This document shows, in pieces, positions 1 through 16,112 of a DNA stretch of 16,162 nt (position 1 is its first letter; each line of letters starts with the position of its first letter). Both the position numbers and the translations under genes were made by a program. The notes beneath the pieces are model-generated. The model was not told the origin of the DNA, made no database searches, and saw only the letters and a program-made list of their open reading frames with translations. The stretch is from a virus, in UHGV virus genome UHGV-0124814; one strand, written 5' to 3'.

Positions 1-37
1 CGCCATAATTGATTTAATTCACAAATAAAACTATAAC

Positions 38-706
38 ATGGTGAAATCAATGAAAAAAAACACAGATGATGGGGCTAAAATTTACACACCACTTACCCTA
101 AAGCTTTATGACTGGTGGGTTTTGGGAGTATCAAATCGGCTTGCATGGGGATGTCCTACAAAGGAACACCTTCTTCCACACTTTCTGGAACATTTAGGTA
201 ACAACCATCTGGATATTGGTGTTGGAACTGGGTTTTATCTTACTCACGTACCTGAGAGTAGTCTGATATCTTTAATGGATTTGAACGAAGCTAGCCTGAA
301 CGCGGCATCTACAAGGGCTGGGGAATCAAAAATTAAACATAAAATTAGCCATGATGTTTTTGAACCTTATCCCGCGGCGTTACATGGTCAATTTGATTCC
401 ATTTCCATGTTTTACCTTCTTCACTGCCTGCCTGGAAATATATCTACAAAAAGCTGTGTAATACGCAATGCGGCGCAGGCCTTAACTGACGATGGAACTC
501 TATACGGAGCCACAATTCTTGGCGATGGAGTTGTGCACAATAGCTTCGGTCAAAAACTGATGCGCATTTACAATCAGAAAGGCATCTTTTCAAACACAAA
601 AGATTCCGAAGAAGGCTTAACACATATACTCTCAGAGCATTTCGAGAATGTTAAAACCAAGGTTCAAGGTACTGTAGTAATGTTTTCCGCTTCAGGGAAA
701 AAATAG
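38..706 (+). CDS. Class I SAM-dependent methyltransferase, substrate unknown (cargo gene in the b-region position)
   Basis: 222-aa ORF; glycine-rich SAM-binding motif 'LDIGVGTGFYL', then 'LMDLNE' and 'FDSISMFYLLHCL'; visibly AT-rich; ATG at 38 lacks an obvious SD, alternative ATG at 50 is preceded by GGTGA. Confidence 0.7.
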   Translation: MVKSMKKNTDDGAKIYTPLTLKLYDWWVLGVSNRLAWGCPTKEHLLPHFLEHLGNNHLDIGVGTGFYLTHVPESSLISLMDLNEASLNAASTRAGESKIKHKISHDVFEPYPAALHGQFDSISMFYLLHCLPGNISTKSCVIRNAAQALTDDGTLYGATILGDGVVHNSFGQKLMRIYNQKGIFSNTKDSEEGLTHILSEHFENVKTKVQGTVVMFSASGKK

Positions 707-713
707 CATCCAA

Positions 714-746
714 CCGCAGCACGTTCTTGCTTAAGACGTGCTGCGG
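714..746. terminator. Perfect 10-bp inverted repeat (CCGCAGCACG ... CGTGCTGCGG) with 13-nt loop between convergent methyltransferase and tfa genes; likely bidirectional terminator
   Basis: Stem-loop read directly; sits in the 54-bp gap between two convergent stop codons; T-run follows on the - strand. Confidence 0.4.
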
Positions 747-760
747 CATAATCCCAATGA

Positions 761-1345
761 TTACTCACTGACAGGGTTCGTAGGCCACTCAATATCAGGT
801 GCAGTTGATGTATCAACACGGTTCAGCAACACCCGATACTTCTTCCAGGCTTCCAGCAACGAGTTTTCTTCCTCCGTTGCGATTTCCAGATCTGCAGCAT
901 CCTGAAGCGGCGCAATATGCTCACTGGCTACCTGCATCAGGTTGTTTTTTGTTTCTTCCGCCTCCCGGATCCGGAACAGTTTTTCTGCTTCCGTATCCTT
1001 CACCCAGGCTGTGCCGTTCCACTTCTGAAACTCCCCTTCCGGCGATAACCAGGTAACATTTTCCGGTAACGGACCGAGTTCAGAAATAAATAACGCGTCC
1101 CCTGACGCTACGTCATAAACCGTTTTACCCCGATGGTCTTCAACGAGATGCCACGATGACTCATCACTGTTGAAAACAGCCACGAAGCCAGCCGGAATAT
1201 CTGGCGGTGCAATATAGGTACTGTTTGCAGGCAGACCTGTATGAGGTGGAATATATGCGTCACCTTCACCAATAAATTCATTAGTTCCGGCCAGCAGATT
1301 ATAAATTTTTATGGTCCGTGGTTGTTCACTCATTCTGAATGCCAT
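761..1345 (-). CDS. tfa: Tail fiber assembly protein Tfa
   Basis: 194-aa ORF '[31 protein letters not shown]...' matching lambda Tfa from memory; start ATG overlaps the stf stop (TAATG). Confidence 0.9.
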
Positions 1346-4041
1346 TATGCAAGCCTCACAATGTAGTTAAATGCGATGTTTTTGACGGTGTTTTCCGCGT
1401 TACCCGCAGCGTTAACGGTGATGGTATGTCCATGTGAACCAATCGCAACGGAGTGCGTATGAGCACCAATACCGACAGTATGCGCGTGTGCACCTGCAGA
1501 TGCTGCTGTGCCGGACAGTGAGTGGCTATGATTACCATCTGTACTGGTATTCGCTAACCACCCCGTAGACATACCTACTGAGCCTTGTACACCCCAGGTA
1601 TTTTGACCTGAGCTTGTATAACCATATTGATAAGTATCTTTAAAAACACTGGGGTTAAATCGACGGCCATCTCTATGGCTGTGATTACCAGCTGCATTCG
1701 TGCTGCCACTTAAACTATGGGTATGCGCACCAGTGTTATTCGTGGATTTAGTGCCGTAATCAAACGACGATGTGGTTTTCGTCCCCAAATCCGTACTGGA
1801 TGCGCTGGCGCTGTGGGTGTGCGATTTAATGCCGTCCCGTTCCTGAGACAATACGGCACGACCACTGGCAGGTTTGCCCTTAATCGTCCAGCCACGCATA
1901 TCAGGGATCACGCCTGACGGATAAGCGGCTGCAAGTTTCGGGTAGGCAGATTTGTCAAAAGTCTGCCCCTGCATCAGGGCATAACCAGACGGAACGGTAT
2001 CCGATGGCCACGGGATTGGTGCGCCAGGCGGATAAAACTGCTCTGATGGCGTATAGAGTGAATAAACTGTACCGTCCGTTAACCCTTCCGGCTTATTAGC
2101 AGAATATGCTGGTGACGTATGAATCGTCACGCTGGCATTACTGGTATAATCCCATTGAATATTTACACCAGTCGCATAATTTCCGATTGCAACGTAAATA
2201 TCGTAAGTATCACCAGATGTATTGACCCAGGCAAAATTTGTAAACCCTGTCGATGTGCGCTGCCATAAAGCACCAGTAATCCCCTTCGGATTACCATTAC
2301 CTGCACGCAAAACAAGTTCAGATATACCTGCCTGTTGAGGTGAACCGACGTTAAATCCAGTGCCACCAATCAACGTAATTGAAACAACAGAACTCGCCTG
2401 TGGCATGGTTACCGTTGCTAATTTGAACCAACCAGCACCACCGCTGAATGACATTGTTGTTGAGTTAAGCGTACCAATATCTTTCGGCGTCAGTGTTATA
2501 TCCTCCGAAAGCGCCTTACCATTCACCTTACGGTCAGAAGGTACCCGATCATTCGCATTGTCATTCGCTGCTTTAACTGCCTTCGGTGTCGCGGCAAGCG
2601 TTTCAGACGTACTGTTTGTCGCACTGCTGAGCTGTACTATCCCCTTTTTCGTCGTGCTCGCATCCTCAAGCGCCACGGCGGATGCAATATCCTCTGCCCG
2701 TTTTGCCGCTGTCTCAGCGCGCGTTGCTGCGGATTCTGCCGTACTTTTGCTCTGTGCTGCCGCTGTCGCACTGCCAGCAGCCTCTGTCGCCTTTGTGGAT
2801 GCCGTCGTGGCGCTGCTCTTCGCTGCTGACGCCTGTCTGGTCGCCTCATCTTTTGAAGCAGACGCCGATGATGCCGATGACGCCGCCGAACTGGCGGACG
2901 ATGCCGCTGCCGTTTTTGAGGATTCTGCGCTGGTTTCCGACGCTTTCGCGTTCGTTTCGGATGTCTTCGCTGAGGAAGCAGACCTCGCTGCTGCGCTGGC
3001 CTGTTCAGTGGCTTCGCCAGTCTTCGTTGTGGCTGTTGAAGCGGATGATGCGGCGCTTTCTGCCGATTTTCCGGCGGCGGTGGCACTGACTGAGGCCTGC
3101 CCGGCACTTGTTGATGCGGCACTGGCGGACGACGCAGCCGCTGTTTTTGAATCTGCCGCAGCTGAGGCACTCTGTCCCGCTGCCGTTTCAGAAGACCTGG
3201 CGTTCGTCTCGGACGTTTTGGCCGCCTTCGCAGAATTTGCTGTCGCCGTTGCCGAGGAAGCTGCGCTGCTGGCGCTCGAGGCTGCGCTCGTTTCTGATGA
3301 TTTTGCCGCCTCTTTTGAAGCCGACGCATCCCGGGCTGAGGTGGCAGCTTCTGACGCTTTCGTGGTCGCGGTGGATGCAGAAGTGGCTGCTGATTGTTGT
3401 GACGCTGCGGCATTCGTTTCTGACGTTTTCGCCGCAGCGGCACTGGTGGCCGCCGCGCTTTTTGAGGACTCTGCAGCGGCAGCACTTTTTTCCGCTTCAG
3501 TGGCCTTTGTTGATGCCGTTTCTGCGCTGGAAGACGCTGACTGAGCCGACGACGCGGCCTGTCCGGCTGACGTGCTGGCTGCGCGTGCTGAGCCTGCAGC
3601 ATCAGTCGCATGGGTTGCCGCCTCACGGGCTGATGTGCTGGCATCGCCGGCTGACTTCTTCGCGGCTGCCGTGTTCTGTGCCACTGCGGACGCGTTACGC
3701 TCCACCTCTTCCACCATCACTTCAAAACGGCGCAGTGCCTCCGGTCGGACATCATCCTCCGTCATGGCACCGAGAAAATCATTCAGCGTACCTGGTCTGG
3801 AACCTTCATAGACGGTAATGGTCCCGGCATGTGAAGGCGGAAAACCTTCAACCAGCAGGGTGACGCTGTACTGACCATGCTCAACATCCATGCTGTAACG
3901 TCCGGCTTCATCCGGATTTTCAGAGGCCACCGTGTTCACCACCACCGTGCTGCTGGTTCGTCTGGCCTTCAGCACAATGGTGCAGTTCTGTACTGGTTTT
4001 CCTGTGCCATCTTTAAGCACGCCAGAAATTTTTACTGTCAT
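1345..4041 (-). CDS. stf: Side tail fiber protein Stf
   Basis: 898-aa ORF; N-terminus '[22 protein letters not shown]...' matches lambda Stf as recalled; central Ala/Ser/Thr-rich repeats; C-terminal HxH-rich region ending '...[11 protein letters not shown]'. Confidence 0.9.
2690..3700 (-). repeat. Degenerate tandem Ala/Ser/Thr-rich repeats inside stf (recurring '...AAKTSETNA...', '...SSASSAASS...', '...STATTK...')
   Basis: Repeated peptide blocks read from the translation; the GCN-rich DNA creates long spurious ORFs in other frames on both strands. Confidence 0.6.
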
Positions 4042-4052
4042 ACTTTTCCACC

Positions 4053-4088
4053 AATAAAAAAAGCCCGCAGCAGTGACGCCACGGGCTT
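4053..4088 (-). terminator. Rho-independent terminator downstream of lom (stem AAGCCCG/CGGGCTT followed by T-run on the - strand)
   Basis: Hairpin plus U-tract read on the - strand between the lom stop (4193) and stf start (4041). Confidence 0.5.
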
Positions 4089-4192
4089 CAGGACAGTGTA
4101 ACTTTACGTTTCCTCAAACGCAGTTCACCCCATAAGGTGGATGAACCTGCGTATCATAACAATATTTACAGAAGATAAATCGGCGTCTGTTG

Positions 4193-4792
4193 TCAGAAAC
4201 GGTATCCGATACCAACAATAAATGCATCCGTTCGCCAGTCGCCACTACCGGAACCTTCATAAGCAAGGTCAATGGTCACGGATTCGGTCGGATTAAACTG
4301 CACGCCAGCCCCCCACGCCAGAGACGTGTTGCTGTGGCGACCGTCATCACTTCCGGTCAGCACATCGTGCGTTTTCCCCTTGTTGTCAGTTACGCGGAGA
4401 TAATCCCCGGAGAAAGTCGAAATACGGCTGTAAGCCACACCCGCCATCGCATACGCGCTGAACCATTCATTCACGCGCACAGACGGCCCCGCCATTACGC
4501 TGAACCAGCGGTTACGAACGGAATCTTCATGCCAGCGGGTATCGCTGTAACGGGTCAGCTGGCGATTCTTGTCTCCTGCATAGCTGAATGACGTCACCAG
4601 CCCCAGTGTGTCCGTAAACTCATAACGGTATTTCACGTTAATCCCGTTCAGATCATCACTGCCGGGGACGTTCGTCGAGGCATGAAGATACCCCGCGCTC
4701 AGCGTGGACTGATGTTCAGACGCCCATGCAGGCGCACCGGATACGGCCAGACAAATGGCTGCGGACAAAATTGCTGCACAAACTTTACGCAT
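4193..4792 (-). CDS. lom: Lom outer-membrane protein (Ail/Lom/PagC family beta-barrel)
   Basis: 199-aa ORF 'MRKVCAAILSAAICLAVSGAPAWASEHQSTLSAGYLH...GIGYRF' with signal peptide and C-terminal aromatic residue; near-identical to lambda Lom as recalled; SD GAGAGG upstream. Confidence 0.9.
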   Translation of the reverse strand: MRKVCAAILSAAICLAVSGAPAWASEHQSTLSAGYLHASTNVPGSDDLNGINVKYRYEFTDTLGLVTSFSYAGDKNRQLTRYSDTRWHEDSVRNRWFSVMAGPSVRVNEWFSAYAMAGVAYSRISTFSGDYLRVTDNKGKTHDVLTGSDDGRHSNTSLAWGAGVQFNPTESVTIDLAYEGSGSGDWRTDAFIVGIGYRF

Positions 4793-4862
4793 AATTACCT
4801 CTCGCTTTTCTGCAATAAAAAAGGCGTCACTCCTGACGCCCTTTATTGGGGTTATAAATATT

Positions 4863-6026
4863 TCAACGAATACTGATGCCGGAAGCGGCTTTTTTGGTCA
4901 CAATCACCGTACAGTCGGTGATATTGCCTGCCCCCTGATTGCCTTTCTGGAAAATCTTAAACTCCAGAGTGACGCTACCACCACCACTAGGCATATCAAT
5001 AACTGCACTGTAACTACCGGGAATGGCCCCTTTAGTTTCTCTGGATGCGATTAATACGCCGTTTTTGCGAACTTCAAAACCATAACCCGTGTATCGCGTG
5101 CCTCCTGGGTTATTTCCGCTCCCCGGATCGTCATACGCTATACCGTTAAAAATAATGGGCGGAATAATAATCTGGCGGTCAAAGTTATGATCATCGCTGA
5201 TGGTGACTGTAACCGTACCGTTTGGTGTTTCCGTGTTACCCCACGTACCGACTTTTTTCGGGAAGGCTTTTGATACAGCTTTAACGAAATCCCCTCTGAC
5301 CTGGGTCGCCTCCAGCATGCCCTTAATCGTACAGTTCTGGTTAATCTTGACATTGTTGAGCGTTCCTGAGTTCGCATTCACACTGCCACTGATATCCGCA
5401 TTTTTAGCGGTCAGCTTTCCGTCTGATGTCAGGGAAAATACCGGAGGACTGCCACCGCTGGTAATGGTGGGGGCCGTCAGGCGCTTCAGGAACACGTCGT
5501 TCATGAATATCTGGTTGCCCTGCGCCACAAACATCGGCGTTTCATTCCCGTTTGCCGGGTCAATAAACGCGATACGGTTAGCGGCAACCAGAAACTGGCT
5601 CAGCTTGCCTTCCTCCGTGTCCTCCATGCTGAGGCCAATACCCGCGACATAATGTTTGCCGTCTTTGGTCTGCTCAATTTTGACGCCCCACATGGCATTC
5701 CATTTATCGTTAGCGTCCTTCCACTCTTTCGAAAACTCCTCCAGTCTGCTGGCGTTATCTTCCGTCAGCTCAAAGTTTTCCAGCAGTTCCTTGCCGAGAT
5801 GCGTTTTATTGATCAACCCTTTATAAAAATTCAGATAACCTTCCGCATCATCGCTCGCCCGACCGACGGCCTCCACAAATGCCGATTTACCAACGGTGTT
5901 CACGCTGCGGATATAAAAGTAATAATCATAACCTGGCTTAATATTGCTACTGGCGGCTATCCAGTACAGCGCCGTACCAAGATAACGCGCGCTGGTTTCA
6001 ACCTGCCTGATATCGATAAGCGGATT
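4863..6026 (-). pseudogene. J: C-terminal fragment (~387 codons) of tail tip/host-specificity protein J; N-terminal part of the gene deleted
   Basis: Open frame from 6026 down to the stop at 4863 with no ATG at its 5' end (first candidate is GTG at 5903); translation resembles the lambda J C-terminus as recalled. Confidence 0.8.
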
Positions 6027-6352
6027 TTATAGGCACGGGTATCACCTTCATTAAACCACACCAGCAGCGCCTGCTGCCCCTGCTCTCCGGGCATCCACGC
6101 CAGCGTGAAGCTGGTATCTCCGGCGGATTTCTGACCCTGCCCGGTCGCGGTCCAGTCCGCATCTTCATCATCGAGATAACTGTCGTCATAGGACTCAGCG
6201 GTCAGTTCGCCGGGCGTCAGGTCTTTAACTTTAGCCAGACGCGACCAGTCAACGTCTGAAAGCGGGTTCGCATAAGGGTCGCCGCTCCCGTTATAAACCC
6301 ACAGGGTGGTTCCGGCACCTTTCACCGGTATTGCTGGATTTGGTACAGGCAT
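5957..6352 (-). pseudogene. V: Truncated major tail tube protein V (N-terminal ~120 aa, then out-of-frame read-through into J sequence)
   Basis: '[20 protein letters not shown]...TRAYKIR' matches the lambda gpV N-terminus as recalled, then changes to '[20 protein letters not shown]' and stops; lambda V is about twice as long. Confidence 0.8.
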
Positions 6353-6359
6353 ATCGTCC

Positions 6360-6755
6360 TCACATTTCATAGGTAATGACATAAGTCAGATCGGCAGAAC
6401 TCCACAGGCCCGCATCATCGTCGCGCCGGTAGTCATAGCCGCTGGCCACCATACTGGTGATCAAATCTGACAGTGCCGGGACATCGCTCATCACCGGATA
6501 AATCCGGGACTCCATCCACGAATCCAGCTCTGAATCCGGCACCTGAGCAGGCAGGAAAACTTCAATATGCAGCTCCGCCTGCCAGGTATCACTGTCCAGC
6601 TCTTCGCCCGTGTATTCAGCGCCGGTGAGATAAACGGCAATTGCCGGAAAATCCGCCTCATCAAAAACAGCGGGGCGACCATCAAAAAGCGTCGCCCCGG
6701 TGTCATGCTTCTCCAGTGCATCCAGTACGGCTGCACGGAGTTCAGTATGTTTCAT
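6360..6755 (-). CDS. U: Minor tail protein U (tail terminator), apparently intact
   Basis: 131-aa ORF '[36 protein letters not shown]...' matching lambda gpU in sequence and length; start ATG overlaps the upstream stop (ATGA). Confidence 0.9.
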
Positions 6756-7165
6756 CGCTTTATTACCATTCTCAGTTGATGCTGCAGCGCATAGCCCAGC
6801 TCTTTCGGAAGACGTTCACGCCGTATCCGTTCAATATTCTGTTTAAACGCCGTGGTAAGCGGCACCGCCATCGGGATTTTCACCACATCAATGGGGTAAC
6901 GGTTTTTCCCGGCCACACGCTGCATGACATGCCACCGGCCATTTTTCAGTTGCTGAATAAACGCGCCGGGAATACGACGGTTTCCCACCACAAGCACGCT
7001 GCCGCCACCTTTCAGGGATGAACGCTGCCCCTTTTTACGACGTCTGCGGCGGGAAAGGACAACCCGCGCGTTACCCAGCTTGATTACGGGCAAATCCTGC
7101 CAGTTCTGAATGGTACGGATACTCGCGCCGAAAATGTCAGCCAGCTGCTTTTTGTTGACTTCCAT
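6752..7165 (-). pseudogene. In-frame fusion of the first 23 codons of terminase small subunit Nu1 to the C-terminal part of a Z-like tail completion protein
   Basis: 'MEVNKKQLADIFGASIRTIQNWQ' is the lambda Nu1 N-terminus, then sequence switches at ~7096 to a basic tail ('DLPVIKLGNARVVLSRRRRRKKGQ...') that I believe is the gpZ C-terminus; ATG sits at the conserved distance from cos. Confidence 0.7.
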
Positions 7166-7375
7166 TGTTCATTCCACGGACAAAAACAGAGAAAGGAAAC
7201 GACAGAGGCCAAAAAGCCCGTTTTCAGCACCTGTCGTTTCCTTTCTTTTCAGAGGGTATTTTAAATAAAAACATTAAGTTATGACGAAGAAGAACGGAAA
7301 CGCCTTAAACCGGAAAATTTTCATAAATAGCGAAAACCCGCGAGGTCGCCGCCCCGTAACCTGTCGGATCGCCGG
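7166..7375 (-). other. Lambda-type cos packaging site (cosQ side ~7345-7375, cosN 12-nt end at 7333-7344, cosB toward Nu1)
   Basis: Reverse complement of 7333-7344 is GGGCGGCGACCT, flanked by 'GATCCGACAGGTTACG' on one side and 'CGCGGGTTTTCGCTATTTATGAAAATTTTCCGG...' leading to the Nu1 ATG on the other, as in the lambda left end; sequence diverges from lambda beyond ~7395. Confidence 0.8.
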
Positions 7376-7566
7376 AAAGGACCCACCAAAAATGATAATG
7401 ATTATCAAATACGTTTATCACACTGATATTCAGAATCACTACTGAAAGACTCCCTTTGTGGTGCGCGAGGGATGCGCATAAAAAAACCACCAGCAAATGC
7501 CAGTGGCTAAAGATATTCATTGCGAATAACCATCACAAAACAACTTAACTCGTGAGGGTAGAAATT

Positions 7567-7971
7567 TTACTCGAGGCCAAATTTCTTCTTTAAATAGGCC
7601 TTCGTTAACTCCAGCCCAACATCTTTGATTGTACTCAAAGGGGCATCGCTCATTGACTTTAATTTCTCAAAAACCGTAGGTTCATTTAATGCCTGGGCGA
7701 ATTCTTGTCCCTGCGCAGATAGTCGCACGTCGGTACCCATATCTAGCATATGGCCACAATGGCGCATGTAGCCCAGTTTAGTTATGTCATCCGTTATTAG
7801 ATCTTTATTACTGATATAACCTTGCTCAATAAGAAGTAGATAATGAAACATCCCTTCATTCGAGCAGATATCGTACCCCGCATTAGCTAAGTCTTTTGTA
7901 GATATAAAGGGAGTTTTCGCTTTCAAAAATACCTCAAGCATCCCCTTCATGTATTCTAAATTTTTAACCAC
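7567..7971 (-). CDS. Hypothetical protein, 134 aa, AT-rich moron
   Basis: GTG start at 7971 preceded by strong SD (TAAGGAGGTTTTT-GTG); no family recognised. Confidence 0.55.
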   Translation of the reverse strand: MVKNLEYMKGMLEVFLKAKTPFISTKDLANAGYDICSNEGMFHYLLLIEQGYISNKDLITDDITKLGYMRHCGHMLDMGTDVRLSAQGQEFAQALNEPTVFEKLKSMSDAPLSTIKDVGLELTKAYLKKKFGLE

Positions 7972-8106
7972 AAAAACCTCCTTAGGATAATTGGAGGTCT
8001 AGAATACCGTTTGCAAGCACGTTGATAAATCATTATCACAGGCACTCAATGAATGCCTGCTGTAATTGCGTACGGTAATGAACGTAAAAAACCGCCCGAG
8101 GTATAT

Positions 8107-8331
8107 TTAGACATTAGATGGCGCTTTGTCAGTATAGACCCGGTACGCCCTGACAAACATCCCGTTACATTCAGAGTCCGCCTTGATATACGCCAATTCG
8201 TAACCCCGATGCTTTAGCTCTTCACGAGCTCTTTTCTCTTCCTTAGCCATGAAGTTAAGATCTTTAATTTCTGAGTAGGTATATGTTCCCACTATAAAAT
8301 CTCTGCCTGGCCGTCCATTTATCAGTTCCAT
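8107..8331 (-). CDS. Hypothetical protein, 74 aa, AT-rich moron (ORF-track version extends to a TTG at 8397)
   Basis: ATG at 8331 preceded by GGGAGGA SD; protein 'MELINGRPGRDFIVGTYTYSEIKDLNFMAKEEKRAREELKHRGYELAYIKADSECNGMFVRAYRVYTDKAPSNV'; no family recognised. Confidence 0.5.
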   Translation of the reverse strand: MELINGRPGRDFIVGTYTYSEIKDLNFMAKEEKRAREELKHRGYELAYIKADSECNGMFVRAYRVYTDKAPSNV

Positions 8332-8424
8332 GTGTCCTCCCAAAAAGTTGGTAGTCAGAACATACCATGCTAAGCGAGGTGAAAGCACCTTTATCAAGCC
8401 CCCCGCAGATAGACTTTGTAATGG

Positions 8425-8712
8425 CTACTTCTTCAGAAATGATTCGATGAACTCACGCCGGGGATGACGATAGTTCAGAATATCTTCTGGCATCCTCATA
8501 AAGCGGTTGTTGCCGTCTTTGGCAGTAACGAAACAGCAGTGAACTCCGCAGACATCCGTTTTGATCGTGTCGCCATACTCAAAAAGCAACTGCGCCATCT
8601 TCTCTTGCCATTCTTGCGGCATAGCCTCCATGAATACTCTCGGCATCACGCAGAACGACGCATGCGTCAGGCCAAACCACAATTGCAGGTCTTTACGATA
8701 TTCTTCATCCAT
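8425..8712 (-). CDS. Hypothetical Cys-containing protein, 95 aa ('...DVCGVHCCF...'), moron
   Basis: ATG at 8712 with AAGG ~10 nt upstream, lying 19 nt downstream of a terminator-like hairpin; no family recognised. Confidence 0.5.
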   Translation of the reverse strand: MDEEYRKDLQLWFGLTHASFCVMPRVFMEAMPQEWQEKMAQLLFEYGDTIKTDVCGVHCCFVTAKDGNNRFMRMPEDILNYRHPRREFIESFLKK

Positions 8713-8730
8713 CGTCTTTACCTTTGTTGC

Positions 8731-8756
8731 AATAAAAAGCCCCGCGAATGCGAGGC
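8731..8756 (-). terminator. Rho-independent terminator-like hairpin (GCCUCGC-AUUC-GCGGGGC then UUUUUAUU) between Rz/Rz1 and the moron ORFs
   Basis: 7-bp GC-rich stem (one G-U pair), 4-nt loop and T-tract read on the - strand. Confidence 0.5.
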
Positions 8757-8930
8757 TAAATCCTGGTGTTTGTGATGACTGGCTCTTATCTCAACGCAGC
8801 CCCTTACCGCGCGCAAGATGCTCAATATCAAGCATCAGCAATGAGATGTTAAATCTGGATTCACTCCAGAAGTGATCACCACCCTGTCTACAGAGCCAGA
8901 TGTGAAGGATGATGAGTAAAATTATCGCTA

Positions 8931-9398
8931 TCATCGAAGGCATTGCGTCCTGATGTATTCCTGAAGCGTTCTCAGTGCTGTTTGGTCGCGGATAATTCCG
9001 TCCCGGATACCGAGAACGTTTCGTCCAGCAACTGGAGAGAGTTCGACGGTGGCATCATTGCCCATGCCGGAGGCGCTGGAGGTTTCGGCTGAGGATGGCA
9101 CAGGGCATTTTCCTTTGACGAGCACCCTGCCACCATTATCAAGCTTGCGACGAAGAGCATCATTTTCAGCTTTCGCATCAGCTAACTCCTTCGTGTATTT
9201 TGCATCGAGCGCAGCAACATCACGCTGACGCATCTGCATGTCAGTAATTGCCGCGTTCGCCAGCTTCAGTTCTCTGACATTTTTGTCGCGCTGGGCTTTG
9301 TAGGTAATGGCGTTATCACGGTAATGATTCAGCCCCAGACTAAGCACACCACAGGCTACCAGCAGGACAATAATCACCACACACAGAACACGGTTCAT
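8931..9398 (-). CDS. Rz: Rz i-spanin
   Basis: From ATG at 9398 (SD GGTGGTGA): '[17 protein letters not shown]...[60 protein letters not shown]...' closely resembling lambda Rz; the longer track ORF starts at an upstream codon. Confidence 0.85.
8972..9178 (-). CDS. Rz1: Rz1 o-spanin lipoprotein, embedded in Rz in the +1 frame
   Basis: 68-aa ORF '[21 protein letters not shown]...' with lipobox 'VAGC' and proline-rich stretch '[11 protein letters not shown]'; embedded position typical of Rz1. Confidence 0.8.
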
Positions 9399-9497: not shown

Positions 9498-10433
9498 TCA
9501 CGATTTCAGCGCAATGACCAGTTTTGCCAGCCCATACAGCATCGGAGACACAGCAATAGCGTATGTATTTTTCCAGTAATACGTCGTGTCACCACAAATC
9601 CACGGCACATTTACAGCACTGCCACCATGACACTGCGCGTTAAACACAGTGAGGTCAGCACGAAACTGCTTCAGCATGGCTGTAAACAGCGCAGGTTGCT
9701 GTGCGTAGGTGGCGGCGCTCATGTCAAACTCTCCCTGCATCCAGCACACCGCCAGCAACACATTTTTCGGGTTCTTCTGTAATGCCGCTTTGGTGCGTGC
9801 GATCAGGTCCTGATATAACGGTTTACCCACACCCCAGCGTGCCGAATCCTGGCTGGCCCCCGTGTCCGCACTGAATGTCCCCTCCGCGCCCTGGGTGAAT
9901 GCCGAACCACCACGACAGCATGGTACCAGCAGGATCCCCGCGTTATTCGGGATATACGGAAGCAGTTTTTTGGCAATATGTAAGCCCTGGCCGACACAGC
10001 CGTACTGCCCTTTGCTCAGGTCTGCCTTCGGATGATTCAGCGTACTCATATCCTGCACATCATGCAGACAGTGGTCAGCCGGGATGATGTCGTTATACGT
10101 ACAACTCTCTCCACCCGGAGTTACCGTGCTGCGGCGCGCCAGCTGTTTAATGCGCGGATCCGGAGCATCGTAAGAATCCGGTAACGGAAGCCCTTCACCG
10201 TAGGCCATGCCGTTGGACTGTCCGGCAAGCACAACCACGTAGAACCAGTCCGGCTCAGATGAAGGGCCGACCTGTGGATCTCCTTCAATAGCCACCGCCT
10301 GCATCAGTGTGTACGGCGTAATGGCAACCGGTCCGCCATATGGCTGCCAGCCCTCTTTCAGTTTGTGTGTCAGCTTTTCCGCAAGGTCTGACGGCGACGC
10401 CGCCCTGACAACATCATAGTGTTTAAATGCCAT
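9498..10433 (-). CDS. Prophage NanS-p-like sialate 9-O-acetylesterase (N-terminal DUF1737-like segment plus esterase core), probably C-terminally truncated
   Basis: 311-aa ORF with 'VVLAGQSNGMAYGEGLPLPD', 'GILLVPCCRGGSAF', 'CWMQGEFD', 'WICGDTTYYWK' resembling E. coli NanS/YjhS as recalled; strong SD GGGAGGA; ORF ends ~100 nt before Rz. Confidence 0.8.
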   Translation of the reverse strand: MAFKHYDVVRAASPSDLAEKLTHKLKEGWQPYGGPVAITPYTLMQAVAIEGDPQVGPSSEPDWFYVVVLAGQSNGMAYGEGLPLPDSYDAPDPRIKQLARRSTVTPGGESCTYNDIIPADHCLHDVQDMSTLNHPKADLSKGQYGCVGQGLHIAKKLLPYIPNNAGILLVPCCRGGSAFTQGAEGTFSADTGASQDSARWGVGKPLYQDLIARTKAALQKNPKNVLLAVCWMQGEFDMSAATYAQQPALFTAMLKQFRADLTVFNAQCHGGSAVNVPWICGDTTYYWKNTYAIAVSPMLYGLAKLVIALKS

Positions 10434-10923: not shown

Positions 10924-11000
10924 TGGCGCGTTGTACTGGATTCGAACCAGTGACCGATTGCTTAGAAGGCAATTGCTCTGTCCGGCTGAGCTAACAACGC
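10924..11000 (-). tRNA. tRNA-Arg (anticodon TCT)
   Basis: Reverse complement folds as cloverleaf: acceptor GCGTTGT/ACAACGC, D-arm GCTC..GAGC, anticodon stem ATTGC/GCAAT with loop CTTCTAA, T-arm ACTGG-TTCGAAT-CCAGT, encoded CCA. Confidence 0.85.
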
Positions 11001-11013
11001 ATGATGCAGATAA

Positions 11014-11090
11014 TGGACCGCCATCGGGGACTTGAACCCCGCGCAGCCAGCTTCGAAGGCTGGCGCTCTTTCCTGATGAGCTAATGGCGG
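11014..11090 (-). tRNA. tRNA-Arg (anticodon TCG)
   Basis: Cloverleaf: acceptor CCGCCAT/ATGGCGG, D-arm GCTC..GAGC, anticodon stem CCAGC/GCTGG with loop CTTCGAA, T-arm CGGGG-TTCAAGT-CCCCG, encoded CCA. Confidence 0.8.
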
Positions 11091-11097
11091 TATGTGA

Positions 11098-11173
11098 TGG
11101 TGGCCCTTGCTGGATTTGAACCAGCGACCTGGCGATTATGAGTCGCTCGCTCTCACCACTGAGCTAAAGGGCC
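11098..11173 (-). tRNA. tRNA-Ile2-like (anticodon CAT; could formally be Met)
   Basis: Cloverleaf: acceptor GGCCCTT/AAGGGCC, anticodon loop CTCATAA, T-arm GCTGG-TTCAAAT-CCAGC, CCA; overall very similar to E. coli tRNA-Ile2 as recalled. Confidence 0.8.
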
Positions 11174-11222: not shown

Positions 11223-11678
11223 TCAAACGATTAAATCCTGAACTTCCCTGACTGTCTGCTCAAAACGTCCGGTCTCCAGTTCAACGCCAATCGCACGACG
11301 CCCGAGCGCCAGTGCCGCTTTTACCGTTGAACCTGAGCCCATAAAAAAATCTGCAACCTGGTCTCCCGGACGACTGCTCGCGTTGATTATCTGCTGCAAC
11401 ATTTCTGCCGGTTTTTCGCACGGATGTTTCCCTGGATAGTACTGCACCGGTTTATACGTCCACACATCGGTGTACGGCACCTGCACCGTCACACCGAAAT
11501 ACCTCCGCAAATTTTTATATTCACTCAGCAGTTCCATATACTGCCGGTTCAGCTCACTGTATGTGCTGACCAGTTGGTAATGGGACTTTTCCAGTTCTCC
11601 CCGCTGATGTTTCTCTTCTGCCACCCGGGCAAACAGCGACTGTAATTTCAGATAATCGCTTTCGTTCGGTATCCGGCG
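11223..11678 (-). pseudogene. C-terminal fragment of a phage DNA N6-adenine/N4-cytosine methyltransferase; N-terminal half absent
   Basis: Frame open from 11678 with no ATG (first start-like codon is GTG at 11624); contains 'HPCEKP' and C-terminal SAM motif 'FFMGSGST' but no DPPY-type motif. Confidence 0.65.
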
Positions 11679-12222: not shown

Positions 12223-14694
12223 ATGAGTAAAGTCTTTATTTGCGCCGCCATTCCGGACGAACAGGCAATAAAGGAAGAAGGTGCAGTCGCTGTAGCCACT
12301 GCCATTGAAGCTGGCGACGAACGCCGTGCTCGAGCAAAATTTCACTGGCAATTCCTGGAACATTATCCGGCTGCTCAGGACTGCGCTTATAAATTTCTTG
12401 TTTGCGAGGATAAACCCGGTATACCCCGCCCTGCCCTCGATTCCTGGGATGCTGAATATATGCAGGAAAACCGCTGGGATGAGGAGTCTGCTTCCTTTGT
12501 CCCGGTTGAGACTGAATCCGATCCGATGAACGTCACTTTTGACAAGCTGGCCCCTGAAGTACAGAACGCTGTCATGGTTAAGTTCGACACATGTGAAAAC
12601 ATCACCGTTGATATGGTTATTAGCGCACAGGAATTGTTGCAGGAAGACATGGCAACATTCGACGGACATATCGTTGAAGCGTTGATGAAAATGCCAGATG
12701 TTAACGCCATGTATCCGGAGCTTAAGCTGCATGCCATCGGGTGGGTTAAGCATAAATGTAAGCCTGGTGCCAAATGGCCCGAAATTCAGGCAGAGATGCG
12801 CATCTGGAAAAAACGTCGCGAAGGTGAACGCAAGGAAACCGGAAAATACACGTCTGTTGTTGATCTCGCCCGCGCCAGAACCAATCAACAGCACACTGAA
12901 AATTCAACAGGAAAAATCAACCCGGTCATTGCTGCCATTCATCGCGAATACAAGCAGACATGGAAAACACTGGATGACGAACTGGCCTACGCTCTCTGGC
13001 CTGGTGATGTGGATGCCGGAAACATTGACGGCAGCATCCATCGCTGGGCAAAAAATGAAGTTATCGACAACGACCGCGAAGACTGGAAGCGTATCTCGGC
13101 ATCAATGCGCAAACAGCCTGATGCCCTTCGCTACGACCGCCAGACTATTTTTGGCCTTGTCCGTGAACGTCCGATCGACATTCACAAAGACCCTGTGGCA
13201 CTGAACAAATACATTACTGAATACCTGACTACAAAGGGCGTGTTTGAAGATGAAGGAACAAATCAGAGCGCAACTGATACTCTCTCGTCGCCAGTACCAG
13301 AAACTGATGCAGTGGAAACGGCAATTCCGGACAACGAAAAAACCGAATGCAAAGTGGAAGTCGAACCATCTGTAGAACGTGAGGGGCCGTTCTACTTCCT
13401 CTTCACCGACAAGGATGGCGAAAAATACGGTCGCGCAAACAAACTTTCTGGTCTGGATAAGGCGCTGTCTGCTGGGGCTACTGAAATCACGAAAGAAGAA
13501 TATTTCGCCCGCAAAAACGGTACATACTCAGGTTCACAACAAAATACTGGTGCATCTGACACGACCGCACAACCAGGGTCAGTAAAAGTTACCGCTGACG
13601 AAGTAAACAAAATTATGCAGGCAGCCAATATCAGCCAGCCTGACGCCGATGAACTGCTTGCAGTATCACGTGGTGAATTTGTTGAAGGGATTAGCGACCC
13701 GAATGATCCGAAATGGGTAAAGGGGATTGAAACCCGCGATTCTGTAAACCAGAACCAGCAAGAATCGGAACAGAACGACCAGAAAGCGGAACAAAACAGC
13801 CCAAATGCGTTACAAAACGAGCCAGAAACGAAACAGCCTGAATCAGTGGCGCAACAGGAAGTGGAAAAAGTCTGCACCGCCTGCGGTCAGACCGGCGGCG
13901 GCAACTGCCCTGATTGTGGCGCGGTAATGGGCGACGCAACATACCAGGAAACATTCGATGAAGAGTATCAGCCTGAAGTTCAGGAAGATGATCCGGAGGA
14001 AATGGAAGGCGCTGAACATCCACACAAGGAGAACACTGGCGGCAATAAGCATCACGATAGCGATAATGAAACTGGCGAGACGGCAGATCACTCAATTAAG
14101 GTGAACGGTCATCAAGAAATCACATCCACCAGCAGGACGTGTGACCATCTAATGATCGACCTTGAAACCATGGGAAAAAATCCTGATGCCCCGATCATCT
14201 CAATAGGTGCAATATTTTTCGATCCGCAAACCGGAGATATGGGACCGGAATTTAGTAAGACTATCGATCTGGAAACTGCTGGCGGAGTCATTGATCGGGA
14301 CACCATTAAATGGTGGCTTAAGCAATCACGCGAAGCGCAATCTGCCATTATGACCGATGAAATCCCGTTAGATGATGCACTGTTACAATTGCGGGAATTT
14401 ATCGACGAAAACTCCGGTGAATTTTTTGTTCAGGTTTGGGGAAATGGAGCCAACTTCGACAACACGATTTTGCGCCGTTCATACGAACGGCAGGGGATCC
14501 CCTGCCCGTGGCGTTACTACAACGATCGCGATGTACGCACAATCGTTGAGCTGGGGAAAGCCATAGACTTCGATGCCAGAACGGCTATTCCATTCGAAGG
14601 TGAGCGCCATAATGCACTTGATGACGCCCGTTACCAGGCAAAATACGTTTCAGCTATCTGGCAAAAACTGATCCCGAGTCAGGCTGATTTTTAA
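12223..14694 (+). CDS. Large prophage early-region protein with C-terminal DEDDh (DnaQ-like) 3'-5' exonuclease domain, central Cys4 zinc-ribbon-like motif and acidic linker
   Basis: 823-aa ORF with SD GAGGT; C-terminal motifs 'MIDLETMG', 'WGNGANFDNT', 'HNALDDARY'; 'CTACGQTGGGNCPDCG'; position immediately upstream of xis/int. Confidence 0.8.
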   Translation: MSKVFICAAIPDEQAIKEEGAVAVATAIEAGDERRARAKFHWQFLEHYPAAQDCAYKFLVCEDKPGIPRPALDSWDAEYMQENRWDEESASFVPVETESDPMNVTFDKLAPEVQNAVMVKFDTCENITVDMVISAQELLQEDMATFDGHIVEALMKMPDVNAMYPELKLHAIGWVKHKCKPGAKWPEIQAEMRIWKKRREGERKETGKYTSVVDLARARTNQQHTENSTGKINPVIAAIHREYKQTWKTLDDELAYALWPGDVDAGNIDGSIHRWAKNEVIDNDREDWKRISASMRKQPDALRYDRQTIFGLVRERPIDIHKDPVALNKYITEYLTTKGVFEDEGTNQSATDTLSSPVPETDAVETAIPDNEKTECKVEVEPSVEREGPFYFLFTDKDGEKYGRANKLSGLDKALSAGATEITKEEYFARKNGTYSGSQQNTGASDTTAQPGSVKVTADEVNKIMQAANISQPDADELLAVSRGEFVEGISDPNDPKWVKGIETRDSVNQNQQESEQNDQKAEQNSPNALQNEPETKQPESVAQQEVEKVCTACGQTGGGNCPDCGAVMGDATYQETFDEEYQPEVQEDDPEEMEGAEHPHKENTGGNKHHDSDNETGETADHSIKVNGHQEITSTSRTCDHLMIDLETMGKNPDAPIISIGAIFFDPQTGDMGPEFSKTIDLETAGGVIDRDTIKWWLKQSREAQSAIMTDEIPLDDALLQLREFIDENSGEFFVQVWGNGANFDNTILRRSYERQGIPCPWRYYNDRDVRTIVELGKAIDFDARTAIPFEGERHNALDDARYQAKYVSAIWQKLIPSQADF

Positions 14695-14755: not shown

Positions 14756-15025
14756 ATGAGCGAACAGTACCTGATAACGCTCGACGAGTGGAAACCAAAA
14801 CGGTTCAGTCTCCCAATAACAAACACTACCCTGGTGAAATACGGAAAACTAGGATACATCGTTCCAAGACCACAAAAAATTCGTGGGCGTTGGCTGATAG
14901 ATCGCCGAGCAGTATTTGTTGGGCCTGGTGAAACGGGAATTGCGCCGGAAATTCATACTGGCGATGATGATGCACTGAAGGAGATTTTAACTCATGTCAC
15001 CGAGGCCACGAAAAAACAGCACTGA
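14756..15025 (+). CDS. xis: Excisionase (Xis-like)
   Basis: 89-aa ORF from ATG at 14756 (SD GGAG 8 nt upstream), immediately upstream of and overlapping int by 32 nt. Confidence 0.65.
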   Translation: MSEQYLITLDEWKPKRFSLPITNTTLVKYGKLGYIVPRPQKIRGRWLIDRRAVFVGPGETGIAPEIHTGDDDALKEILTHVTEATKKQH

Positions 15026-16112
15026 CGTAGCCGGTCTTTACGAAAAGTTTGATCGCAGAACTGGCAGAGTTTACTACCAGTATAAAAATCCTGTGACTGG
15101 AAAATTTCACGGACTCGGAACAGACAAAGGTAAGGCAGAAAAAATCGCTTCCACAGCCAATCAGCGAATAGCTGCAGCAGAAGCTGAATATTTCATGCGC
15201 AAAATTGATGAAAGTCCGTCAGCAACAAAACGTCGGGGTATCAGATTAAAGGCATGGGTTGATCGATATCTGAAAATACAGGACACGCGACTGAAAAATG
15301 GAGATATTGCAGCTACAACTCACAAAGAAAAAACTCGAATGGCTGCATACCTGGTTTCCCGTCTGGGAAACCCCCCATTGAAAGAACTGGAAGTAAGAGA
15401 CTTTGCATTAATACTGGATGAGTGGCTGGATAAAGACATGGTCAGCACAGCGAGAGTAAATCGTGGATTATGGGTTGATATTTATAAAGAAGCACAGCAT
15501 GCAGGGGAAGTTCCTCCTGGATGGAATCCTCCGGAGGCTACCCGTAAACCGATCCCTAAAGTAACCAGAGCCAGGCTCACCATGGAAGACTGGCAAAAAA
15601 TTTACAATGCAACGCCTGAAAAACACTTTATCCGTAACGCAATGCTTCTTGCGATTGTTACTGGTCAGCGCCGTGATGACATTTGCCACATGCGTTTTTC
15701 AGATGTGTGGAACGAACACTTGCATATCACCCAGGGAAAAACCGGAATGCGTCTGGCGTTACCGCTTACACTACGCTGTGATGCCATTGGGATAACGTTA
15801 AAAGAAGTTATTGATGGGTGCCGAGACAGAATATTAAGTCCATATCTAATCCATAGTCGGCACCAGAAACAACCGAAGCCGATGAGTAAAGACAACCTGA
15901 GCGACTACTTTGCCAAAGCACGGGATCTGGCTGGGATAATTCCACCAGCAGGAAAAACTCCGCCAACATTTCATGAACAACGCTCTCTATCAGAACGGCT
16001 GTACCGTGCACAGGGTATCGATACAAAAACATTACTAGGACATAAAGTCCAGGCAACCACCGATCGCTATAACGATACTCGAGGTCAGGAATGGGTTAAG
16101 CTGGTTATTTGA
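14994..16112 (+). CDS. int: Tyrosine site-specific integrase, lambda Int family
   Basis: 372-aa ORF; C-terminal catalytic region '...TGQRRDDICHMRFSDV...', 'HEQRSLSERLY', 'LLGHKVQATTDRYNDTRGQEW' parallels lambda Int RHR-Y motifs; distinct from lambda Int itself. Confidence 0.9.
   Translation: MSPRPRKNSTDVAGLYEKFDRRTGRVYYQYKNPVTGKFHGLGTDKGKAEKIASTANQRIAAAEAEYFMRKIDESPSATKRRGIRLKAWVDRYLKIQDTRLKNGDIAATTHKEKTRMAAYLVSRLGNPPLKELEVRDFALILDEWLDKDMVSTARVNRGLWVDIYKEAQHAGEVPPGWNPPEATRKPIPKVTRARLTMEDWQKIYNATPEKHFIRNAMLLAIVTGQRRDDICHMRFSDVWNEHLHITQGKTGMRLALPLTLRCDAIGITLKEVIDGCRDRILSPYLIHSRHQKQPKPMSKDNLSDYFAKARDLAGIIPPAGKTPPTFHEQRSLSERLYRAQGIDTKTLLGHKVQATTDRYNDTRGQEWVKLVI

Follow-up and report, generated by a model that had tools for sequence, protein, structure and literature searches.

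The window (the whole stretch of DNA analysed, 16,162 nt) carries its late phage genes on the minus strand, and among them the 5' part of a lambda-type major tail tube gene, V, runs directly into the 3' third of the tail tip and host specificity gene, J. An open reading frame (ORF) of 141 aa spans the join (5957..6382, minus strand), and it owes its first 10 codons to an in-frame ATG further upstream, within the 3' end of U. The true V start is the ATG at 6352 (MPVPNP...), which lies 7 nt past the U stop codon, the same spacing as in lambda. From this start, 111 of 111 residues match the V protein of L001, an intact related prophage, the last ones being ...AYKIR. Translation then continues through 20 out-of-frame codons of J-derived DNA to a TAG at 5957-5959, while the same DNA read in another frame gives residues 754-1137 of a 1137-residue J protein, down to a stop at 4863. 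The first-pass annotation had described a V frame that is followed through AYKIR and then enters the J C-terminus in a different frame, and both translation and alignment agree with that description. The features at and around the join are as follows.

4863..6017, minus strand: 'J, the final third of J (tail tip / host specificity), encoding residues 754-1137
5957..6019, minus strand: out-of-frame tail of the V' ORF, 20 codons, ending in TAG at 5957-5959 (from translation)
6018..6019: crossover, AA on the plus strand and TT in gene sense (from aligning the window jointly with the two parent segments of L001, J side and V side)
6018..6026, plus strand: AAGCGGATT, the arm of a 9-nt inverted repeat that was kept on the V side
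6020..6352, minus strand: V', codons 1-111 of V, the major tail tube gene (from identity to L001, lambda homology and Pfam PF16461, Phage_TTP_12)
6360..6755, minus strand: U, the tail terminator gene, intact and the upstream neighbour of V' (131-aa ORF, Pfam PF06141, 100% identical to L001)

Neither partner is a whole gene. V' is clearly homologous to gpV but comprises only residues 1-111 of a complete protein of 246 residues, and the missing residues 112-246 (135/246) correspond to the rest of the tube domain and the C-terminal Ig-like domain. 'J retains the C-terminal tail-tip and Ig_GpJ_C domains of gpJ (PF09327 and PF12421; 99.7% DNA identity to gpJ of L001) but residues 1-753 are missing, out of about 1,130 in a complete gpJ that starts at its own codon. 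At the junction the fragment is without a start codon, stops close the J frame just upstream, and the two Pfam matches are on record for a 346-aa sub-ORF chosen by gene callers within the fragment. The first out-of-frame codon of V' is TTA, both T's of which are supplied by the crossover at 6018-6019. Relative to the lambda genes themselves, V' and 'J are homologous (95.9% and 89% DNA identity, respectively), but neither gene is complete here. Judged from the reading frames, V' (131 aa, of which 111 are from V and 20 are unrelated residues) and the 'J fragment are pseudogene remnants; it is implausible that V', or a promoterless and start-less 'J, could contribute to tail building, and plausibly no function is to be expected of either.

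A single deletion between V and J

The complete lambda-like prophage used as reference, L001, is located in E. coli AF39 (NZ_OZ547136.1) and is about 99.7-100% identical to the window. Its genes are in the order Nu1 A W B C D E FI FII Z U V G T H M L K I J lom stf tfa, and it carries both parent segments of the join uninterrupted, with the annotation of an ordinary V...J set of tail genes. No closer intact relative was found; L001 occupies another chromosomal locus, and if the actual parent had a slightly different J allele, the overlap given below could shift by 1-2 bases. The window aligns with it in two blocks of the same orientation that share the crossover bases.

window 1-6019: L001 2268-8286, 99.7% DNA identity (J side)
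window 6018-7097: L001 16759-17838, 100% DNA identity (V side)

DNA alignment to L001 places the breakpoint at 6017/6020, with the crossover at 6018-6019, inside the interval of about 6017-6027 that had been suggested from the sequence. The parental sites lie 8,474 bp apart in L001, and the DNA that is lost comprises V codons 112-246, G, G-T, H, M, L, K, I and J codons 1-753. Since 8,474 is of the form 3n+2, the join is frameshifted. The earlier proposal of one deletion that removed the 3' end of V, the genes G, T, H, M, L, K and I, and most of J therefore holds, with about two thirds of J gone. Alignment to lambda itself, the check that the first-pass annotation had put forward, finds homology on both sides: the V side is 95.9% identical to lambda 8807-9289, where V homology stops, and J homology (89%, lambda 17767-18081 onward) picks up at about 17762-17767. 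Flank homology of 95-100% across hundreds of bases is far above chance. Both flanks are collinear with one uninterrupted parent and the DNA between them is simply absent; base-level alignment detected no filler bases at the V-J junction and no insertion sequence (IS) or att sequence. The join is very probably an ordinary deletion scar in a decaying lambda-like E. coli prophage that is integrated between potB and potC.

Among 5,426 complete E. coli genomes, V-side matches to 6018-6400 were obtained but the V-J junction was not (0/5,426), and no continuous V-J gene was seen in relatives, the finding that had been named as arguing against a deletion. The uninterrupted J parent segment is present in 4,134 of these 5,426 genomes and the uninterrupted V parent segment in 3,699. 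A 26-mer across the junction had no exact hits in the GTDB species-representative genomes, the IMG/VR viral contigs or the JGI metagenome contigs, a result that reflects the contents of those collections. The entire window (16,162 bases) is 100% identical to part of a 41.9 kb human-gut metagenome contig (ENA ERZ1314742 NODE_385, here L003), on which the element is flanked by potB and potC. The exact 131-aa V' protein was found on 14 contigs from ENA, Logan and NCBI, and its NCBI entry, from E. coli 2-156-04_S3_C1, is KDV96998.1 ('major tail V domain protein'). Searching for the 141-aa ORF as an exact protein returned no match, because gene callers start at the true V ATG, and it is the 131-aa form that is recorded.

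Wrong joining of two prophages during assembly, or a chimera, has to be considered for any such join, given that V and J are repeated among the lambdoid prophages of one genome (a median of 3 places per genome), a typical cause of misassembly. Such an artefact is hardly credible here. All related contigs that extend across the site share an identical 41-mer at the junction (a 61-mer was matched as well). They come from Logan runs, from NCBI isolates and from metagenomes at ENA and JGI, and are independent assemblies made from different samples with different pipelines. Some of these are long contigs of 100-286 kb (GCA_020857475.1, GCA_021449925.1 and a JGI metagenome), and an assembler cannot be misled by an overlap of 2 bases. 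GCA_000703525.1 is a further carrier. The related contigs sampled number about 20 and are all ~100% identical, i.e., near-clonal.

Short homologies at this and three further junctions

The exact direct overlap between the two parents was computed as 2 bases, AA on the plus strand at window 6018-6019 and TT on the gene strand, and it sits within an imperfect direct match of 8 of 11 bases. The sequences around the crossover are given below.

J parent, plus strand: ...ATATCGATAATCCGCTTTTCCGAG
V parent, plus strand: ...GTTCGGGAAGCGGATTTTATAGG
Window, plus strand: ...ATATCGATAAGCGGATTTTATAGG
V parent, gene sense: AAAATCCGCTT^CCCG
Closest J parent, gene sense: GAAAAGCGGATT^ATCGAT, the reverse complement of the ATCCGCTT motif

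The first-pass annotation had suggested a microhomology-mediated join at an 8-base motif, ATCCGCTT, shared by V and J. A direct overlap does exist, of 2 bases, and to that extent the suggestion stands; the motif itself occurs in the two parents on opposite strands, as a 9-nt inverted repeat and not a direct one. The BLAST alignments overlap by 11 bases (6018-6028), a figure that was rejected as an extension through mismatches; these are the bases of the 8-of-11 match. No direct repeat of about 8 bp or more is present at both breakpoints, the longest exact direct match within ±15 nt being 4 nt (TTTT). A few directly shared bases with no filler, IS end or att core are what is expected of a microhomology join, and this evidence is weak on its own. 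At least 2 shared bases are found at a random junction 16% of the time, and since the overlap is within chance, the use of microhomology at the V-J junction in particular is not provable.

Three more deletions of the same style, each with 2-3 bp of microhomology, were located in the same element at 7095-7097, 9557-9558 and 11669-11671.

6752..7165, minus strand: Nu1'-'Z in-frame fusion, with junction TCC at 7095-7097 and 7,948 bp lost relative to L001
9557..9558: third deletion junction, TA, with ~3.6 kb lost relative to L001, from the SASA esterase gene to the Rz-type lysis gene
11669..11671: fourth deletion junction, GTA, with ~7.1 kb lost relative to L002, a related prophage at potB/potC

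At the second of these four junctions, codons 1-23 of Nu1 are fused to the last 114 codons of Z, and A, W, B, C, D, E, FI and FII are gone. The 137-aa product matches both Pfam Phage_Nu1 and Minor_tail_Z, and has been deposited under several NCBI accessions as 'phage tail protein'. The third deletion cut the SASA-family esterase to 311 aa and removed the holin, the lysozyme and small ORFs. The fourth runs from an N6/N4 DNA methyltransferase gene to a point upstream of dicB, with loss of Q, rusA and the immunity region. That all four junctions should have at least 2 shared bases has a chance of 7 in 10,000, and the junctions as a set therefore show the use of very short homology.

Junctions 1-3 (V-J, Nu1-Z and esterase-Rz) were found together in every contig that spans them. 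Junction 4 is absent in GCA_021449925.1 and SRR12495219, which carry junctions 1-3 and keep full methyltransferase, Q antiterminator, rusA and DUF968 genes, and hence at least the junction 4 deletion occurred later. Junctions 1-3 could in principle have arisen in one replication accident by serial template switching of the MMBIR/FoSTeS type. All of the deletions skip in the same direction with 2-3 bp of microhomology each, short stretches of the prophage remain between deletions, for example the 1,080-bp Z'-U-V' segment, and the three junctions co-occur in every spanning contig. We regard a single accident as unlikely, however, since junction 4, which is of the same style, is demonstrably a separate event and points to stepwise accumulation in this element, and since co-occurrence is also expected of a single small clone (~20 contigs, ~100% identical).

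The inverted 9-mer is positioned precisely. The retained V-side arm is the AAGCGGATT listed above, its partner AATCCGCTT (L001 8285-8293) lies immediately inside the deleted J-side DNA, and both arms begin exactly at the crossover base, in the same register in both parents. The lambda J side reads AAGCAGATTGCGGAT; the inverted copy is imperfect there and the motif is not shared. In simulations, an inverted exact match of at least 9 nt within ±15 nt was found at 0.3% of random prophage site pairs, and a match of that length in either the direct or the inverted sense at 0.6%. After allowing for both orientations and for four junctions the chance rises to about 2%, for an observation made post hoc, and no inverted repeat longer than 5 nt is present at the other three junctions of the window.

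These figures bear on whether the inverted repeat (AATCCGCTT / AAGCGGATT) caused the deletion, either through single-stranded pairing or by presenting two cleavage sites to a dimeric enzyme such as DNA gyrase. The start of both arms at the crossover base, in a configuration seen at 0.3% of random site pairs, is what makes such a cause worth weighing. It is nevertheless quite improbable: the pattern was noticed post hoc at a chance of about 2%, nothing similar above 5 nt occurs at the other three junctions, a 9-bp stem closing a loop of 8.4 kb should be unstable, and the imperfect 8/11 direct match describes the same bases more simply. Skipping across a hairpin formed by the repeat was rejected as a variant, as it predicts the loss of both arms and one arm is kept. 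It is also decidedly unlikely that the four deletions, or at least the three that co-occur, represent one multi-jump template switch whose first jump was guided by the inverted 9-mer. Its presence at the breakpoints is probably due to chance; the reading of the join as a deletion scar leaves the 9-nt inverted repeat (P ~0.003) unaccounted for.

The V-J join is very probably the product of a single illegitimate recombination, in which V (codon 111 plus two bases) was joined to J (from the last two bases of codon 753). A direct overlap of 2 bases argues against homologous recombination and against classical slippage between long repeats, and we infer a microhomology-assisted join by RecA-independent illegitimate recombination. 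The most likely routes would be end joining at a double-strand break or a template switch during replication; in the former, resected ends may have annealed at a couple of bases and then been ligated. As far as can be deduced from the sequence, end joining, template switching and gyrase-mediated exchange would all be compatible with the junction. Illegitimate recombination in E. coli has been described as closely analogous to microhomology-mediated end joining (PMC11372144), and deletions are known to accumulate in defective prophages (PMC6379469, PMC7744054).

State of the prophage remnant and comparison with known systems

The element has the properties of a defective prophage: it lies between chromosomal genes, and lacks genes for particle formation, lysis and regulation. 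The potB/potC flanks were seen both in the identical contig and in the related prophage L002. Among the genes lost are A, W, B, C, D, E, FI, FII, G, T, H, M, L, K, I, Q and those for holin and lysozyme. What survives is cos, three tRNA genes, U, lom, dicB, int and xis, together with genes for a large exonuclease, a methyltransferase and the side tail fibre. It is thus a remnant in which cos, int and xis have been kept without replication or terminase genes. An exact copy of the lambda cosN 12-mer (GGGCGGCGACCT) is found at 7343-7354 on the minus strand, ~180 nt upstream of the truncated Nu1. The 823-aa exonuclease (Pfam YdfE_N/YdfE_C/Rv2179c-like), dicB, xis and the integrase are intact (12223-14694 and 14994-16112, plus strand), and for this reason excision of the element may still be possible though particles cannot be made.

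Three phage-borne tRNA genes are located at 10924-11173 on the minus strand: tRNA-Arg(TCT), tRNA-Arg(TCG) and a tRNA with a CAT anticodon, which ARAGORN assigns to Met and the RefSeq annotation of relatives to Ile. A gene for a class I SAM-dependent methyltransferase (38-706, plus strand) lies beside the tail-fibre assembly gene on the opposite strand, in a moron-like arrangement, and a stretch within the tail-fibre assembly gene (783-937) is 91% identical to a partial tail-fibre-assembly pseudogene at 2001-2155 of L001. Two further candidates for rearrangement were considered and rejected. The region 7407-9147, situated between cos and the lysis gene and absent from L001, is an ordinary mosaic module with small hypothetical ORFs only, and E. 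coli prophages such as those of UPEC69, ETEC6 and O104:H4 carry it at 99.8-100% identity. An apparent insertion of a '379-aa gene' after lom is an antisense ORF where contigs end inside the tail-fibre gene, at window 1915.

Retention of V' or of the J C-terminal fragment for some use, as a poison subunit against superinfecting lambdoid phages or as a recombination reservoir of J and tail-fibre fragments, is pure speculation and very improbable. V' is still an open frame of 131 aa directly behind an intact U, and defective prophages are known DNA donors to infecting phages (PMC3945230). Against this, there is no sign of selection, the copies being ~100% identical and too young to judge, the late-gene activator Q is deleted in the variant represented by the window (junction 4), and the tail of V' is random out-of-frame sequence.

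In its general state the element resembles the cryptic, 'grounded' prophages DLP12, Rac, Qin and e14, which are likewise integrated lambdoid elements with internal deletions of morphogenesis, lysis and regulatory genes (PMC6379469, PMC6832061), and in which int/xis, dicB-type genes, lom and tail-fibre genes are also kept. It differs from them in its potB/potC locus, in being confined to a small lineage (0/5,426 complete genomes), and in being much younger: what survives of it still matches a complete prophage at 99.7-100% identity, so that each deletion can still be mapped to the base. The V-J deletion itself is similar to the products of illegitimate recombination in E. coli, as seen in aberrant lambda excision and the Spi- assay, in being of kilobase scale, with few shared bases and no inserted or mobile-element DNA (PMC11372144). 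Against that background an overlap of 2 bases is rather short, at the low end of the range, and would also fit homology-independent joining.

The phenomenon is well known, and the sequence and the truncated protein are already in public databases. For annotation, V' (5957-6352) and 'J (4863-6017) are to be recorded as pseudogene fragments of one deletion and not as genes; at present automatic callers list the former as 'major tail V domain protein' and the latter as a tail-tip protein of 346 aa. The significance beyond annotation is small; the element is a clean, young case of stepwise prophage decay, with four base-mapped junctions, one of them still polymorphic among carriers, and provides a convenient natural data point for studies of prophage DNA deletion in E. 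coli.
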